Shown in pieces: positions 1 through 20,315 of a stretch of 32,000 nucleotides of DNA (within the stretch, counting starts at the first letter, position 1; each line of letters starts with the position of its first letter). The stretch lies in assembly GCA_041649575.1 (NCBI GenBank), contig JBAZMW010000002.1:202792-234791 (forward strand), read 5' to 3'. The stretch comes from Patescibacteria group bacterium. GTDB taxonomy: Bacteria; Patescibacteriota; Patescibacteriia; 2-01-FULL-39-33. The notes under the pieces are model-generated. The model saw only the letters and a list, made by a program, of their open reading frames with translations, was not told the DNA's origin and searched no databases. The translations under genes and the position numbers were made by a program.

Positions 1-696
1 GAAAAAGAAGCCAAAGTCTATCTGGCTGCTCTGGAATTGGGCAATTCTAAGGTCAGTGAAATAGCCAAAAAAGCCGGTTTAAATCGCATTACGGCTTATG
101 AAATTTTGAAACGATTAAGACAAAAGGGGTTGGCCGTGAGCTTAACTAGAAATAACGTTTTGACTTTTCGGGTGATTGATCCTGAAAAAGTTATTAAGAA
201 AATGGAAAGCAAGTTATCCTTGTCTCGGGAGCTTTTGCCGGCGCTGGTGCTACTAAAAAATAACAGCGGCAAAAAGCCGAAGATCGAGTACTTTGACGGT
301 CGTGAAGGATTAAGGGCTTTGTGCAACGATTCCTTAAACTGTCAAGAAAAAATAATTTATGATTTGGCGGAACCCACCAATCTGTTGAAAACTATCGGCG
401 AGGATTTTTTTAATTCTTTTGTCAGACAAAGAGTCAAAAAAGGAATAAAGGTCAAGTTGTTGCTGCCTAAAAACAAAGAGAACAAAAAATATCTCGGGGT
501 AGTAAAAAGAGATTTAAGAGAATTAAGATTTATTGATGATGATTTGTATCCCAATGAGTTTTATATTTATGACAATAAAGTCGCCATACTCTCCTTCTCC
601 GGCAAGATGGGAGTATTAATTGAAGACGAGGAAATCGCCAAATCAATGAAGTCCATCTGGAGATTCTTATGGAATCACTCTGACAAAAATTTTTAA
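1..696 (+). CDS. TrmB-family transcriptional regulator (5' end runs off the window)
   Basis: Frame 1 is open from base 1 (EKEAKVYLAALELGNSKVSEIAKKAGLNRITAYEILKRLRQKGL, a TrmB-type winged HTH). The TTG at 37 in the ORF track is probably internal. The C-terminal half resembles the TrmB effector domain. Confidence 0.8.
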   Translation, partial: EKEAKVYLAALELGNSKVSEIAKKAGLNRITAYEILKRLRQKGLAVSLTRNNVLTFRVIDPEKVIKKMESKLSLSRELLPALVLLKNNSGKKPKIEYFDGREGLRALCNDSLNCQEKIIYDLAEPTNLLKTIGEDFFNSFVRQRVKKGIKVKLLLPKNKENKKYLGVVKRDLRELRFIDDDLYPNEFYIYDNKVAILSFSGKMGVLIEDEEIAKSMKSIWRFLWNHSDKNF

Positions 697-16435: not shown

Positions 16436-16508
16436 GGGGCGTTAGCTCAGCTGGTAGAGCAACAGCCTTTTAAGCTGATGGTCACAGGTTCGAATCCTGT
16501 ACGCCCCA
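16436..16508 (+). tRNA. tRNA-Lys (anticodon UUU)
   Basis: GGGGCGU-UA-GCUC-AGCUGGUA-GAGC-A-ACAGC-CUUUUAA-GCUGA-UGGUC-ACAGG-UUCGAAU-CCUGU-ACGCCCC-A. Confidence 0.9.
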
Positions 16509-16516
16509 TTAATTTT

Positions 16517-16546
16517 AAAACAGGAACCAGGGTTCCTGTTTTAAAA
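16517..16546 (+). terminator. Intrinsic terminator after tRNA-Lys
   Basis: AAAACAGGAAC-cagg-GUUCCUGUUUU followed by AAAAUU. Perfect palindrome with a U run. Confidence 0.75.
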
Positions 16547-16622
16547 TTACCTGAATATTTTACTTCTCAAAAAAATTGAAATTGGCTGCTCTTTCAGTGT
16601 ATAAACTGTTAAAAAATAGTGT

Positions 16623-16837: not shown

Positions 16838-18229
16838 ATGCCAGAACTTGAAAACAGCTCCAGCGGCAAACTGCCCCCGCAAAATTTGGAAGCCGAACAA
16901 TCGCTTTTGGGCGCTTTGCTGATAGACAAAGATTCCATTATTAAGGTGGCTGATTTATTATCAGCCGACGATTTTTATCAGGACAATCACTCTCTGATCT
17001 ATGAAACAATTTTGGAACTGTTCGAAAAAAGAGAAGCTATCGACATTTTAAGCCTCACCAGCCGCCTCGAAGAAAAAAAGCTCTTGCAGCAAATCGGCGG
17101 CCGCAGCTACCTGATTAGTCTGACCAATCAAGTCCCCTCCTCCGCTCATGTAGCTTCTTATGCCCAAATCATTCAGAAAAAAGCCACCTTAAGAAGACTC
17201 ATCGCCGCCGCCAACAATATTTTAGAGCTTGGCTACCACGAAGAACGCGAGGTAAACGAAATATTGGACAAAGCCGAACAATCGGTTTTTAGTGTTTCGC
17301 AAAAATACCTCAAAGAAAAATTCACGGCCATTAAGGAAGTGCTCTCCGAAGCCTTCGAACGTATCGACGAGCTCCACCGTGAAAAAGGCAAACTACGAGG
17401 ACTGGCCACCGGCTTCGGCGATTTGGACAGCCTGCTGGGCGGTTTGCAAAAATCCGATTTGGTCATTTTGGCCGCCAGGCCATCGGTGGGTAAAACTTCC
17501 CTGGCTTTGGACATCGCCAGGAATGCGGCGGTCAAATATAAAAAATCAGTCGGTATTTTTTCGTTGGAAATGTCCAAGGAACAGCTCGTGGACAGATTGA
17601 TCTGCGCCGAAGCTGGCATTGGCTTGTGGAAAATGCGCACCGGCCGGCTCTCGGAAAGCGGCGATGATTTCCCGCGTATCGGCCACGCCATGAGCGAACT
17701 GGCTGAAAGCCAAATCTACATCGATGATTTTGCCAATACTAACGTAATGGAGTTAAGGACCAAGGCCCGCCGCTTGCAGCTGGAACACGGCCTGGATTTG
17801 ATAATTCTCGATTATCTGCAACTGATGGAAGGCGCCACCGGCCGCTACGGTGACAATCGTGTCCAGGAAATAGCCGAGATATCCAGATCGCTCAAGGGCA
17901 TCGCCAGGGAGCTTAACGTGCCAGTCCTGGCCTTGTCTCAATTGTCCCGCGCCGTCGAGATGAACAAGCCGGCTATTCCTAAATTGTCCCATTTAAGGGA
18001 GTCGGGTTCTATAGAGCAAGACGCTGATGTGGTGATGTTTATCTACCGCAAAGCCGCCGATCGCGGCTATGATATCAACTCTCTAAGCGAAGAAGAAAAG
18101 CACTTGGCGGAGATTCATGTGGCCAAACATCGCAACGGCCCAACCGGTTTGATCTATTTGTTTTTCGACGAAGACCGGGTCAGCTTCAAAAATTTAGAAA
18201 CCAAGTTAAATGCCGGTCAAAATTTTTAA
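16838..18229 (+). CDS. dnaB: Replicative DNA helicase DnaB
   Basis: PPQNLEAEQSLLGALL N-terminus, Walker A ARPSVGKTS, LIILDYLQLM, SQLSRAVE, RESGSIEQDADVV. No intein. Confidence 0.95.
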   Translation: MPELENSSSGKLPPQNLEAEQSLLGALLIDKDSIIKVADLLSADDFYQDNHSLIYETILELFEKREAIDILSLTSRLEEKKLLQQIGGRSYLISLTNQVPSSAHVASYAQIIQKKATLRRLIAAANNILELGYHEEREVNEILDKAEQSVFSVSQKYLKEKFTAIKEVLSEAFERIDELHREKGKLRGLATGFGDLDSLLGGLQKSDLVILAARPSVGKTSLALDIARNAAVKYKKSVGIFSLEMSKEQLVDRLICAEAGIGLWKMRTGRLSESGDDFPRIGHAMSELAESQIYIDDFANTNVMELRTKARRLQLEHGLDLIILDYLQLMEGATGRYGDNRVQEIAEISRSLKGIARELNVPVLALSQLSRAVEMNKPAIPKLSHLRESGSIEQDADVVMFIYRKAADRGYDINSLSEEEKHLAEIHVAKHRNGPTGLIYLFFDEDRVSFKNLETKLNAGQNF

Positions 18230-18250: not shown

Positions 18251-18541
18251 ATGTTCAATAAACTCAAACAAATCCAGGATTTCAAAAATCAAGCCGGCCA
18301 GATCAAACAGGCTCTGGCGCAAGAAACCATCGAAGGCAGCGGCGGCTGTGGCAAAGTAAAGATATTAATGGATGGCAACCAGGAAGTAAAAAAAGTGGAG
18401 ATTAGTGAAGAATTTTTAACCGACAAAGAAAAATTGGAGGCGGCTATTGCCGAAGCGGTTGGCGACGCCATCAAAAAAGTCCAGCGTGTTATGGCCCAGA
18501 AGATGAGTCAGCTGGGCGGTCTGAATTTGCCGGGATTCTAG
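18251..18541 (+). CDS. ybaB: Nucleoid-associated protein YbaB/EbfC family
   Basis: 96 aa. The ...GSGGCGKVKILMDGNQEVKKVEISEEFL...D.E.LE..I..A...A pattern is typical of YbaB. Classical position next to recR. Confidence 0.85.
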   Translation: MFNKLKQIQDFKNQAGQIKQALAQETIEGSGGCGKVKILMDGNQEVKKVEISEEFLTDKEKLEAAIAEAVGDAIKKVQRVMAQKMSQLGGLNLPGF

Positions 18542-18552
18542 GCAGCCTTAAT

Positions 18553-18847
18553 AAAAAAAGCAGCTCCGCGAGTTGTGTTTATGCGACAGCACAACTCTAC
18601 GGAGCTTTGCAGGAGGAAAAGCCATGAGACTGGGAGGGCTCACGGACTTCTCGGTGGTGGTCAAGATCGGATTCGATCAAAACCTCCTTGGTGATAGACT
18701 ATTCCGGTGTCAGCCAGAGCCGGTGTTACCTTACCTGGGCTGTTTGGGCGAAATCCTTGCGGATCTCGCCATCTGTGACTGAATCGAACTCTCTCTGCTA
18801 CGGACACGACCTGGCTGACACCGGAAGATCTGGGTCGAATGTACTTA
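18553..18847 (-). ncRNA. Candidate structured ncRNA of unknown family (~295 nt), antisense to the ybaB-recR direction
   Basis: Bounded by a minus-strand promoter (18881-18853) and an intrinsic terminator (hairpin 18562-18606 plus U7 at 18559-18553). GC-rich. Has a 16-bp long-range helix and a GNRA-capped 10-bp hairpin with a strand-specific G.U pair. Confidence 0.55.
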
Positions 18848-18852
18848 CTTAA

Positions 18853-18881
18853 AAGATAACAAGCTATAAATAACTTGTCAA
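18853..18881 (-). promoter_or_regulatory. Sigma70-type promoter of the antisense RNA
   Basis: Minus strand TTGACA (18881-18876), 17 nt, TGtTATCTT (extended -10, hexamer 18858-18853). Confidence 0.6.
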
Positions 18882-18895
18882 GTGAAAATCCGATC

Positions 18896-19495
18896 ATGAA
18901 CTATCCCAAGTCAATTCAAAATTTAATCAATCAGTTTGCCAAACTCCCCAGTATCGGCCCCAAAACCGCCGAACGGCTGGTTTTTTATTTGCTGAAAAAA
19001 TCGGAAACCGAACTGCGTCAATTCGGGGAAGCCATCGAACAAGCGAAAAATAATGTCAAAATCTGTGCTGTCTGCTTCAATTTCGCCGAAACCAATCCCT
19101 GCCAAATCTGTTCTAATCCCCATCGCGATCAACAAATCATCTGTGTCGTCTCTAAGCCGCAAGACATTATCGCGCTAGAAAAAACCGGCTCCTATTCCGG
19201 CGTTTATCATGTTTTGGGCGGAAATATTAATACCTTAGACAACCTCGGCCCGGCAGAAATAAGAACTAGTGAATTGGTAAGTAGAATAAAAAAACAAGGA
19301 GCCAAAGAAATCATCTTGGCTCTCAACCCCGATCTCGAAGGCGAAACCACTTCGCTTTATTTAATAAAACTAATCAAACAACTCGCGCCAAAAAAAATCA
19401 CCCGCCTGGGGCGCGGCTTGCCAATGGGAGCCGACCTGGAATATGCCGATGAGATCACCCTGGAAAACGCCTTAAAAGCCAGACAAATATTGTAA
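18896..19495 (+). CDS. recR: Recombination protein RecR
   Basis: MNYPKSIQNLINQFAKLPSIGPKTAERL (HhH), C4 zinc finger CAVCFNFAETNPCQIC, Toprim domain. ATG 18896 gives the canonical 199 aa, so the TTG at 18875 in the ORF track is probably too early. Confidence 0.95.
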   Translation: MNYPKSIQNLINQFAKLPSIGPKTAERLVFYLLKKSETELRQFGEAIEQAKNNVKICAVCFNFAETNPCQICSNPHRDQQIICVVSKPQDIIALEKTGSYSGVYHVLGGNINTLDNLGPAEIRTSELVSRIKKQGAKEIILALNPDLEGETTSLYLIKLIKQLAPKKITRLGRGLPMGADLEYADEITLENALKARQIL

Positions 19496-19496
19496 T

Positions 19497-19545
19497 AAAA
19501 AAATCGACCCCGCACCTAGTAGCTTGTTAGCTTTCGGTGCGGGGT
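19497..19545 (-). terminator. Intrinsic terminator of the GC-rich island transcript (also the nearest hairpin behind recR)
   Basis: ACCCCGCACC (19507-19516) / GGTGCGGGGT (19536-19545), 10-bp stem. On the minus strand it is followed by cgaUUUUUUU (19503-19497). On the plus strand no U tract follows. Confidence 0.7.
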
Positions 19546-19667
19546 ACGCTATGATACTTAGACTATACTAATAGTAGGTTCCCCTACCTTTTGCCAGACG
19601 AATGTGCATAATAGCCCTCCTTTCTGCCAGTGGGCCTTCCTACCCACAGGACGTTTGTACAAATGCG

Positions 19668-20051
19668 TTAGGCGGCGGTCGCGGCGGCGGTCGCGTAAAA
19701 TTCGTAACAACCGTCGAGCCTTTCCCCCCGACCCATGAAATACATATATGGGTTGTTGGTACCAGTGCGGTAGCCCAATGGTTCGCACGTCCCTTGATCG
19801 AGGACGGTTTCCATGGTTCCGTTTACCTCGACCAGAATGAAGCGGCTCAAGGTGGCGTTGGGGATGGCATGTGGTTCCTGTGGCTCGATGACGTACACCA
19901 CGAATTTCCCTTTCGCGTTAAGCGCGCTCGCCGGTTTGCGTATTTCGAGCGGTAAATCCATCGAGCAGTTGCGCAACCGGCGGATGACCTCCGCAGCCGG
20001 TAGACGACAGGTCTCGCGGCTGCACATATTTACCAACTGAAGACGAAACAT
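19668..20051 (-). CDS. Orphan 127-aa protein encoded in a GC-rich island, no family recognised
   Basis: GAGGAG (20065-20060), 8 nt, ATG 20051. G/C-rich codon usage (CGC, GCG, CCG, GTC, ACC) unlike neighbouring AAA/TTT-rich genes. Has its own promoter and terminator. Starts MFRLQLVNMCSRETCRLPAAEVIRRLRN and ends ...CYEFYATAAATAA. Confidence 0.55.
   Translation of the reverse strand: MFRLQLVNMCSRETCRLPAAEVIRRLRNCSMDLPLEIRKPASALNAKGKFVVYVIEPQEPHAIPNATLSRFILVEVNGTMETVLDQGTCEPLGYRTGTNNPYMYFMGRGERLDGCYEFYATAAATAA
19671..19694 (-). repeat. Perfect 12-nt tandem duplication at the 3' end of the orphan ORF
   Basis: GGCGGCGGTCGC x2 on the plus strand (19671-19682, 19683-19694), encoding ATAA-ATAA just before the stop codon. 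Confidence 0.9.
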
Positions 20052-20107
20052 GTGGATCACTCCTCATGTAGCGCTAGCCCTATTGCCAGCGACTGTCGCT
20101 GTCAGTG

Positions 20108-20162
20108 ACAGGTACAGTATTTAGGGGATAATTAGTCTTTATGCCATAAATACTACACCTGT
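20108..20162 (-). promoter_or_regulatory. Long hairpin in the 5' leader of the orphan ORF
   Basis: Minus-strand RNA ACAGGUGUAGUAUUUA / UAAAUACUGUACCUGU, 16 bp including two G.U pairs that would be A.C mismatches on the plus strand. 23-nt loop. Confidence 0.5.
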
Positions 20163-20181
20163 CTTCAAAGTACTGTTTTAT

Positions 20182-20210
20182 AATATATCATATATATAAA
20201 ATTTTGTCAA
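20182..20210 (-). promoter_or_regulatory. Sigma70-type promoter of the GC-rich island
   Basis: Minus strand TTGACA (20210-20205), 17 nt, TGaTATATT (hexamer 20187-20182), embedded in a very AT-rich tract. Confidence 0.6.
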
Positions 20211-20276
20211 ATATATTTATTAATAATAAATGTAAATATTAATAAATATATCTAAAATTAAATAAAATATATTTAT

Positions 20277-20315
20277 CTAAACAAAACACACCCGACTTTT
20301 TAATCGGGTGTGTTT
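20277..20315 (-). terminator. Intrinsic terminator after rplU
   Basis: Minus strand AAACACACCCGA-uuaaaaag-UCGGGUGUGUUU followed by UGUUU. Confidence 0.7.

Follow-up and report, generated by a model that had tools for sequence, protein, structure and literature searches.

Small RNAs (sRNAs) of the RsaE/RoxS type in Firmicutes pair through C-rich loops with Shine-Dalgarno regions and repress translation, while the cat-86, cmlA and erm leaders are translation attenuators that act through leader peptides. The gene for signal recognition particle (SRP) RNA, a structured RNA of the housekeeping kind, adjoins dnaX-ybaB-recR in Firmicutes and Actinobacteria. The Patescibacteria, or candidate phyla radiation (CPR), have tiny genomes, and to our knowledge few regulatory RNAs have been described in them. 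Here, we analyse a stretch of 32,000 nucleotides (nt) from a Patescibacteria group bacterium (GenBank assembly GCA_041649575.1, contig JBAZMW010000002.1, positions 202,792 to 234,791), which is called the window throughout and numbered from its first letter. The gap between the genes ybaB and recR in the window most probably holds a real gene for a strongly folded non-coding RNA (ncRNA) on the minus strand. A sequence-only reading of the window had proposed a stand-alone structured RNA gene at this place; the transcription signals, the fold and the comparison with relatives support it, transcription itself being predicted.

Among the described systems, the window RNA would work most like a stand-alone bacterial sRNA. 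As in the RsaE/RoxS type, the gene stands alone between a sigma-70 promoter and an intrinsic terminator of its own and appears to lack coding capacity, and the predicted fold leaves two tracts complementary to Shine-Dalgarno sequences unpaired: CCCUCCC, displayed by a hairpin loop, and CCUCCU, in the linker that leads to the terminator. On the modelled structure, these unpaired C-rich tracts suggest a working resemblance rather than membership. The window RNA differs in being about three times longer, in carrying an extra 135-nt domain closed by a helix of 16-24 base pairs (bp), in the lack of an Rfam match (none to the C-rich-loop families of the RsaE/RoxS type at E-values up to 10), and in that the C-rich tracts are not conserved across the corresponding units of relatives.

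A promoter-to-terminator unit on the minus strand

The minus-strand promoter that the sequence-only reading had pointed out was recovered by a consensus scan (Table 1). It lies back-to-back with recR, its -35 box only 14 nt from the recR ATG. From a predicted start at about 18846 the transcript would extend for ~295 nt, roughly to 18553, where the terminator proposed earlier is likewise present in both sequence and fold, tail-to-tail with the ybaB stop codon (18539-18541); its 12-nt loop and the interruption of its stem caused a simple terminator scan to overlook it. The distance between ybaB and recR is 354 nt, as given before, and the predicted unit overlaps the coding region of neither gene; the earlier label 'antisense' is therefore apt for a unit on the strand opposite to its neighbours, in a positional sense only. 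The G+C (GC) content of the RNA body is 0.525, compared with 0.442 for recR, 0.46 for ybaB, 0.486 for dnaB and 0.428 for the window, a modest enrichment of about 8-10 points; the contrast drawn in the sequence-only reading, with recR at ~33%, was too large.

Promoter and U-tract alike face in the minus-strand direction. In the predicted helices (the P1 extension, P2, H3 and H4), every G.U pair of the minus strand would become an A.C mismatch on the plus strand, and the stability excess over shuffled sequences is greater on the minus strand. Taken together, signal orientation, G.U sense and fold excess favour the minus strand.

Table 1. Features of the predicted RNA gene (window coordinates) and mini-open reading frames (mini-ORFs) at the corresponding loci of relatives (coordinates of the respective locus, designated L). 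MFE, minimum free energy.
Feature	Position	Strand	Basis	Remarks
Sigma-70-type promoter	18853..18881	-	consensus scan	10/12 matches, upstream TG
-35 element	18881-18876	-	consensus scan	TTGACA, followed by 17-nt spacer
Extended -10 element	18861-18853	-	consensus scan	TGtTATCTT
5' box	18838..18845	-	motif (A/U)GUACAUU	AGUACAUU, at about +2 of the predicted RNA
P1-closed domain	18695..18831	-	inverted repeat; MFE and ensemble fold	pairing probability about 1
P2 hairpin, inside the P1 domain	18747..18770	-	MFE and ensemble fold	10 bp, GGCGAGAUCC-GCAA-GGAUUUCGCC; one G.U in minus sense
H3 hairpin	18656..18687	-	fold and pairing probabilities	inner stem UGAUCG/CGAUC
H4 hairpin	18616..18652	-	unpaired probability of loop about 0.9	CCCUCCC (18638-18632) in loop
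CCUCCU tract, linker from H4 to terminator	18611..18616	-	unpaired probability about 0.5-0.8	first C closes H4
Intrinsic terminator	18553..18606	-	sequence and fold	interrupted 7+8-bp hairpin 18606-18562, GC, U7 18559-18553
Mini-ORF, L091	2309-2335	-	regular expression	
Mini-ORF, L168	2310-2336	-	regular expression	
Mini-ORF, L170	798-827	-	regular expression	
Mini-ORFs, L173	1714-1740 and 1540-1566	-	regular expression	
Mini-ORF, L174	138-167	-	regular expression	
Mini-ORF, L086	747-767	-	regular expression	

Predicted fold of the RNA

The minus-strand RNA (18850-18553) folds with an MFE of -119.4 kcal/mol, corresponding to z = -7.1 relative to 200 dinucleotide shuffles and z = -7.9 in a second shuffle set, whereas four coding controls of equal length from dnaB, ybaB and recR range from -0.6 to +1.8. 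In the ensemble fold a P1-closed domain with P2 inside is followed, in the 5' to 3' direction, by H3, H4 and the terminator.

P1 dominates the 5' half. The sequence AGAUCUU (18831-18825) runs into it, and its perfect 16-bp core (18826-18811 with 18717-18702), a long-range helix already seen in the sequence-only reading and confirmed by a repeat finder, encloses 93 nt and is extended to about 24 bp by flanking pairs (AGAU/GUCU plus four to seven further pairs). Inverted repeats of at least 16 bp within 300 nt did not occur in any of 100 composition-preserving block shuffles of the window, and those of at least 14 bp occurred at a mean of 0.03 per shuffle. The only other perfect inverted repeat of at least 16 bp in the window is a short-range hairpin at 16510-16550, directly after the tRNA-Lys gene, and is probably the terminator of that gene.

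The GCAA-capped hairpin P2, with its single G.U pair in the minus sense, and a further hairpin GGUUUUGAUCG/CGAUCUUGACC are present as described before; P2 has no alignable counterpart among the units of relatives. In H3, a Shine-Dalgarno-like GGAGG (18687-18683, part of the RNA's own AAGGAGG) is paired with GACCACC, and the stem of H4 includes two G.U pairs in the minus sense.

Coding potential and known RNA families

Mechanical ORF calling finds frames of 69 or 52 and of 54 amino acids (aa) on the plus strand of the gap and of 78 aa on its minus strand. None of them matched Pfam, a search of 5.8 billion proteins gave no homologue of the 69-aa plus-strand ORF, which had evidently never been annotated as a gene, and a tblastx comparison of the window gap with the gaps of relatives found nothing significant beyond the promoter region. 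The plus-strand 52-aa and minus-strand 78-aa ORFs were rejected as genes, being without Pfam match or conservation and, for the former, without homologue.

A functional plus strand, either as a structured ybaB-recR spacer or as the 52-codon gene at 18624-18782, is highly improbable. The plus strand also folds beyond its shuffles (z = -5.0 and -5.9 in two shuffle sets), the ATG at 18624 is preceded by a canonical ribosome-binding site (a perfect AGGAGG-7 nt-ATG), and a 13-nt repeat, 92% complementary, links 18661-18673 to the recR start at 18887-18899, including its ATG. However, the AGGAGG is the mere complement of the minus-strand CCUCCU, the ORF has no counterpart in relatives, several helices would carry A.C mismatches on this strand, the transcription signals face the other way, and a 12/13 match in a 600-nt region is estimated to arise by chance roughly once per ten tries. 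By virtue of the same repeat, a plus-strand read-through transcript could mask the recR start, and within the minus-strand RNA the initiation region of recR is reproduced (AAUCCGAUCUUGA against AAUCCGAUCAUGA).

For the minus-strand RNA, no known family could be assigned. Across the whole window, cmscan with the Rfam models at gathering thresholds returned only four tRNAs, and a permissive scan of 18450-18950 at E-values up to 10 contained no match to transfer-messenger RNA (tmRNA), RNase P, SRP or 6S RNA, yielding noise only (fragments of long non-coding RNAs and a terminator-like sRNA at E = 4.6). ARAGORN reported the four tRNAs in the window and no tmRNA. The eyeball exclusion of these four housekeeping RNAs in the sequence-only reading is thus upheld, and tmRNA and RNase P were rejected on the strength of these scans. 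A retron ncRNA (msr-msd) was also rejected: despite the long-range repeat, the genes alongside are ybaB, dnaB and recR, with no ORF as large as a reverse transcriptase on either side. Literature searches on structured or small RNAs of Patescibacteria, CPR 6S RNA and the YPSGF peptide (see below) found nothing relevant.

It remains conceivable, and in our view very unlikely, that the Rfam models overlooked a divergent housekeeping RNA, either 6S/Ms1-like or an odd SRP RNA. The window RNA shares with 6S/Ms1 RNAs a strong promoter and an internally looped domain with a long closing stem (~24 bp), large unpaired strands and an apical hairpin, together with poor sequence conservation alongside a preserved overall shape; the domains of relatives are rod-like as well. 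In contrast to 6S, however, its apical stem measures 10 bp rather than the expected 20-25 or so, too short for the 6S promoter mimic, its domain is about 135 nt long rather than 180-300 nt, an extra 3' half with two hairpins is attached, and the relatives have no consistent central bubble. With so short an apical stem, a 6S RNA was set aside as unlikely.

The likeness to SRP RNA consists of a GC-rich structured RNA gene beside ybaB/recR, a rod-like domain closed by its ends, and the string AGG-UCG-UGUC-CGU-AGCA (18812-18796, minus strand), whose AGG-N3-N4-N3-AGCA spacing is that of the SRP helix-8 tip (AGG-N3-tetraloop-N3-AGCA). The unit of the window is placed in the opposite orientation and between ybaB and recR; the loop UGUC of the string is not a GNRA tetraloop, and its flanks cannot pair into a helix 8 and are absorbed by P1 and its extension. 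The string was judged coincidental and SRP RNA was rejected. Further arguments against any housekeeping RNA come from the relatives: none of ten loci searched with Rfam matched a family, 6S, SRP, RNase P and tmRNA included, one locus (L167) has no unit at all, and where units occur their size varies four-fold and their interiors cannot be aligned. The window RNA would thus stand outside every curated family tested and may represent an undescribed family restricted to one clade of Patescibacteria.

The gap upstream of recR in relatives

The comparison covered 178 RecR-anchored loci. The closest RecR in the collections is only 72% identical, which means that they hold no near relative of the window RNA. 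Only in the clade whose RecR is at least 63% identical are gaps of 313-1100 nt before recR the rule. Remoter taxa with ybaB just upstream of recR (located by tblastn) mostly have gaps of -25 to +16 nt; in a minority the gap measures 29-355 nt, in one case 909 nt, and elsewhere dnaB abuts recR. The earlier statement that ybaB and recR are normally adjacent holds for most remoter taxa, but not for these longer gaps.

Nearly all expanded gaps examined contain a minus-strand promoter-to-terminator unit of the same build as that of the window (L081, L083, L085, L086, L089, L091, L168, L170, L173, L176 and L178). The promoter reads TTGAC(A/G)-17-TGnTAnnnT and lies 15-120 nt away from the start of recR; the body after it is GC-rich, measures between 220 and about 950 nt and leads to an intrinsic terminator. 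Two such units stand in tandem in some gaps. Most bodies show significant structure (z about -3 to -7 in 10 of 12 segments), as a rule with the greater excess on the minus strand.

The promoters in this position raise the main rival explanation, namely that transcription at the site matters in cis and the RNA product does not. The unit could shield recR from transcription that runs on from dnaB-ybaB, affect the recR promoter by competition or activation, or provide an antisense transcript to read-through or to the 5'-untranslated region (5'-UTR) in the manner of an excludon. As in cis-antisense and excludon arrangements, a strong promoter sits back-to-back with a gene start and fires away from recR, convergent with the upstream genes ybaB and dnaB, and position is kept while sequence turns over. 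Position and orientation are retained even in L081, L085, L086 and L089, whose bodies share no motif with the window, the bodies change fast in both sequence and length, and the terminator is shared tail-to-tail with ybaB. Since the -35 box lies so close to the recR ATG, either the recR promoter overlaps the RNA gene or recR is read through from ybaB, which favours a role in cis. On the other hand, the best-sampled relatives (L170) appear to have their own recR promoter in the spacer without overlap, so that overlap of opposite transcripts is not conserved, and L167 manages without any unit. An excludon would need neither structure nor a covarying helix, and a cis role leaves the structure excess, the covarying P1 and the conserved 5' box unexplained. 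Overall, we consider a role in cis rather unlikely.

Two sequence features of these gaps deserve mention. Relatives repeatedly have an AT-rich palindrome, (T)ATCTAAATTTAG(A/C)TA, a short way upstream of their minus-strand promoters, beside the recR start (L081 at about 2695-2710; L168, L170, L091, L174 and L177 within 30 nt upstream of recR), and also between the tandem units of L081 and L086; a related TATCTAAAATTAAATA occurs in the window at about 20240-20260, in a second island described below. The palindrome may be a regulator or UP-element site. In L170, an A-rich tract of ~150 nt with A6-A7 runs and short words lies between the P1 domain and the terminator (about 300-460, minus strand).

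Motifs shared by the window RNA and its relatives

The predicted RNA of the window has a box, (A/U)GUACAUU, at about +2, just downstream of the promoter, and P1 follows 6 nt after it. The box recurs within the first 40 nt of the predicted transcripts of L083 (~+3), L178 (~+28) and L091 (~+35). Against a background of 75 occurrences of GTACATT on both strands of 1.87 Mb, its presence in this position in four lineages is estimated to be far beyond chance, despite the definition of the motif after the fact. In L091, box and P1 occur in the same order as in the window, with about 230 nt more between them.

The second shared element is P1 itself. As in the window, the motif AG(A/C)U(C/U)U(U/A) directly precedes the 5' strand of a P1-type helix in L091, L168, L170 and L176. 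These long-range helices comprise 12-16 bp around a common core, GUG(U/C)C / G(A/G)CAC, flanked by sequences that are entirely different between lineages and yet retain complementarity. A scan anchored on the core, which replaced a scan for the motif plus any helix with G.U allowed (too unspecific in AT-rich DNA), found helices of at least 13 bp on both strands of the 1.87 Mb only in the window, L091, L168/169, L170 and L176, plus one false match in a high-GC Bifidobacterium.

In an alignment of P1 excerpts, 93.7% of the cells are in pairs and, in 12 of the 16 pairs, both sides vary; none of 500 shuffles paired as well and no slid register came close. The P1 strands were picked for pairing, which inflates this covariation count; what is non-trivial about the match is that the lineages share the core, the 5' motif and the place in the genome. 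All G.U pairs in the P1 helices of L091, L168 and L176 are in the RNA (minus) sense, which argues against an inverted repeat that acts at the DNA level.

Alignment-based approaches were less informative. MAFFT alignments of the whole domain place the helix strands out of register, and a covariance model (R1), built from the P1 excerpts without the window and with an artificial 6-nt loop that cannot span the real 93-nt interior, returned noise only. Judged by its place and promoter, its 5' box and its P1 core, the window RNA fits the gap family, apparently as a member without the mini-ORF found in relatives (see below). It is likely, with appreciable room for doubt, that it is homologous to their units.

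Weighing the evidence

Several observations count against a conserved RNA gene. BLASTN and nhmmer searches with the window gap over the 178 loci, a comparison with Patescibacteria relatives that the sequence-only reading had suggested as a check, detected no sequence similarity to any relative, nor did a profile built for nhmmer from L091, L168 and L170 match the window; homology therefore leans on short motifs defined after the fact. The covariation count of P1 carries the bias described above, the covariance-model search is technically uninformative, and no relative closer than 72% RecR identity exists in which covariation of P2, H3 and H4 might show. A perfect 16-bp duplex is, moreover, unusual for ancient functional RNAs. 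The locus also behaves as a variable insertion spot: in L167 the upstream gene and recR are a mere 46 nt apart, and the gap of L172 is occupied by an acetyltransferase gene. Finally, the C-rich tracts before the terminator are not family-wide, which weakens the mechanism proposed for them.

The variability of the locus is also the basis of another explanation, in which the unit would be a functionless remnant of an inserted gene or mobile cassette decaying at a hotspot, its inverted repeat reflecting cassette ends or an invertible segment in the DNA. The genes that flank recR differ among relatives (acetyltransferase, GATase, a 632-aa protein), the window itself has an orphan 127-aa ORF on the other side of recR, many contigs of relatives end in the gap, and a perfect 16-bp repeat could be young. 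Against this stand the RNA-sense G.U pairs in the P1 helices of relatives, which point to selection on RNA rather than DNA pairing, and the maintenance of 5' box and promoter across lineages. BLAST searches for distant similarity to phages and plasmids and a scan of viral contigs for the mini-ORF pattern found nothing, the gap segment has no second copy in the window and no recombinase is encoded nearby. On the grounds of G.U sense, copy number and the missing recombinase, a miniature inverted-repeat transposable element or invertible segment was rejected, and a functionless remnant is altogether improbable. The contigs in question (L086, L088, L092, L170, L171 and L174-L177) end less than about 1 kb upstream of recR, which may reflect strain-level variability or repeats at the locus, or merely short contigs.

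Against this background, we regard it as an even call whether the window holds a genuine RNA gene of the gap family whose product acts as RNA.

Mini-ORFs in the RNAs of relatives

The 5' end of many gap RNAs in relatives has a feature that the window RNA lacks: a strong Shine-Dalgarno sequence, ACAG-ATG and an ORF of 8-9 codons that ends in [YF]-[PAS]-S-G-F-x-stop. Examples of the encoded peptides are MEYPSGFV, MEYASGFP, MEEYPSGFE, MEYPSGFP, MNFSSGFT and MISYASGFP. A search for M-x(1-3)-[YF]-[PAS]-S-G-F-x-stop upstream of P1 found five distinct units, all upstream of recR (ten matches when duplicate contigs and the two L173 copies are counted); the window and the remainder of the 1.86 Mb gave no match. 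The codons vary synonymously (GGA/GGG/GGT, CCG/CCT), the stop codons vary (TAG/TAA/TGA), and whole codons are inserted. In L086 two SGF motifs are fused in one frame of 72 codons, and L178 has a different pair of mini-ORFs that start with GUG. The mini-ORF lies upstream of the stable helix, in some cases adjacent to it, and the 5' strand of the helix is Shine-Dalgarno-like. The heptapeptide YHQGGFD in the 78-aa frame of the window was considered as a remnant of such a mini-ORF and rejected; it lacks a start codon and is found on the other side of P1 from the mini-ORFs.

The long forms of relatives thus resemble leader-peptide attenuators in their Shine-Dalgarno sequence, their 8-9-codon ORF with a conserved peptide tail and the stable helix downstream, but differ in having a terminator at their end in place of a regulated protein gene. 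It is possible that the mini-ORF encodes a leader or arrest peptide without a downstream gene, and the window RNA looks like a short form without this module. One could go further and envisage a new class of RNA, of which the window RNA would be the minimal form: a P1-clamped rod, to which most relatives would join one or two translated mini-ORFs with a conserved nascent-peptide tail (Y-P/A-S-G-F-x-stop), and in which ribosome occupancy or arrest on the mini-ORF would control the folding, processing or activity of the ncRNA itself instead of a downstream gene. We consider this unlikely.

Proposed mode of action

In our preferred model, a stand-alone ncRNA gene would be read from a strong extended -10 promoter back-to-back with recR to a terminator at ybaB. 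The family to which it would belong occupies the ybaB-recR or dnaB/ybaB-recR gap and would be marked by position, orientation and promoter, by the (A/U)GUACAUU box at the 5' end and by AGAUYUU together with P1 and its GUGYC/GRCAC core; the window RNA would be the local member without a mini-ORF. The product would work as RNA. Its 5' half is predicted to form a stable domain whose rod-like interior evolves fast and is clamped by P1; with its 16-24 bp, the P1 duplex is long enough to serve as a substrate of RNase III. The exposed CCCUCCC of the H4 loop and the CCUCCU of the linker would pair with purine-rich Shine-Dalgarno regions and repress translation in trans, a tentative proposal by analogy with the sRNAs of Firmicutes that we think doubtful.

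Surroundings of the locus

The genes around the gap are all encoded on the plus strand, in the order tRNA-Lys (16436-16508), dnaB (16838-18229), ybaB (18251-18541) and, after the gap, recR (18896-19495); the ybaB product matches the Pfam family YbaB_DNA_bd with E = 1e-20.

A second unit on the minus strand, with a GC content of 0.555, lies on the other side of recR (19500-20210). It has a TTGACA-17-TATATT promoter with TG and 11/12 matches (20210..20182), a structured 5'-UTR of some 115 nt, a GAGGAG ahead of the ATG (20051) that opens the 127-aa ORF mentioned above, which extends to 19668, and a terminator near 19500-19545. The sole match of this ORF among the 5.8 billion proteins is itself ('hypothetical protein WC518_02225'), and neither Pfam nor PADLOC returned a significant match. 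In most relatives examined, the L21 gene closely follows recR. Between the second island and the L21 gene, the window is extremely AT-rich (20100-20300, GC 0.13-0.29 per 100 nt), with several promoter-like sites on both strands.

Outlook

A structured and strongly promoted RNA at one syntenic place across a clade would be a rare handle on RNA regulation in uncultured Patescibacteria. With a covarying P1 and a mini-ORF whose codons vary synonymously while its peptide tail is conserved, the gap RNAs make a testable family, both for curation in the manner of Rfam and for metatranscriptomic validation. Should the coupling to the mini-ORFs prove true, it would extend the principle of leader-peptide control to a non-coding RNA.

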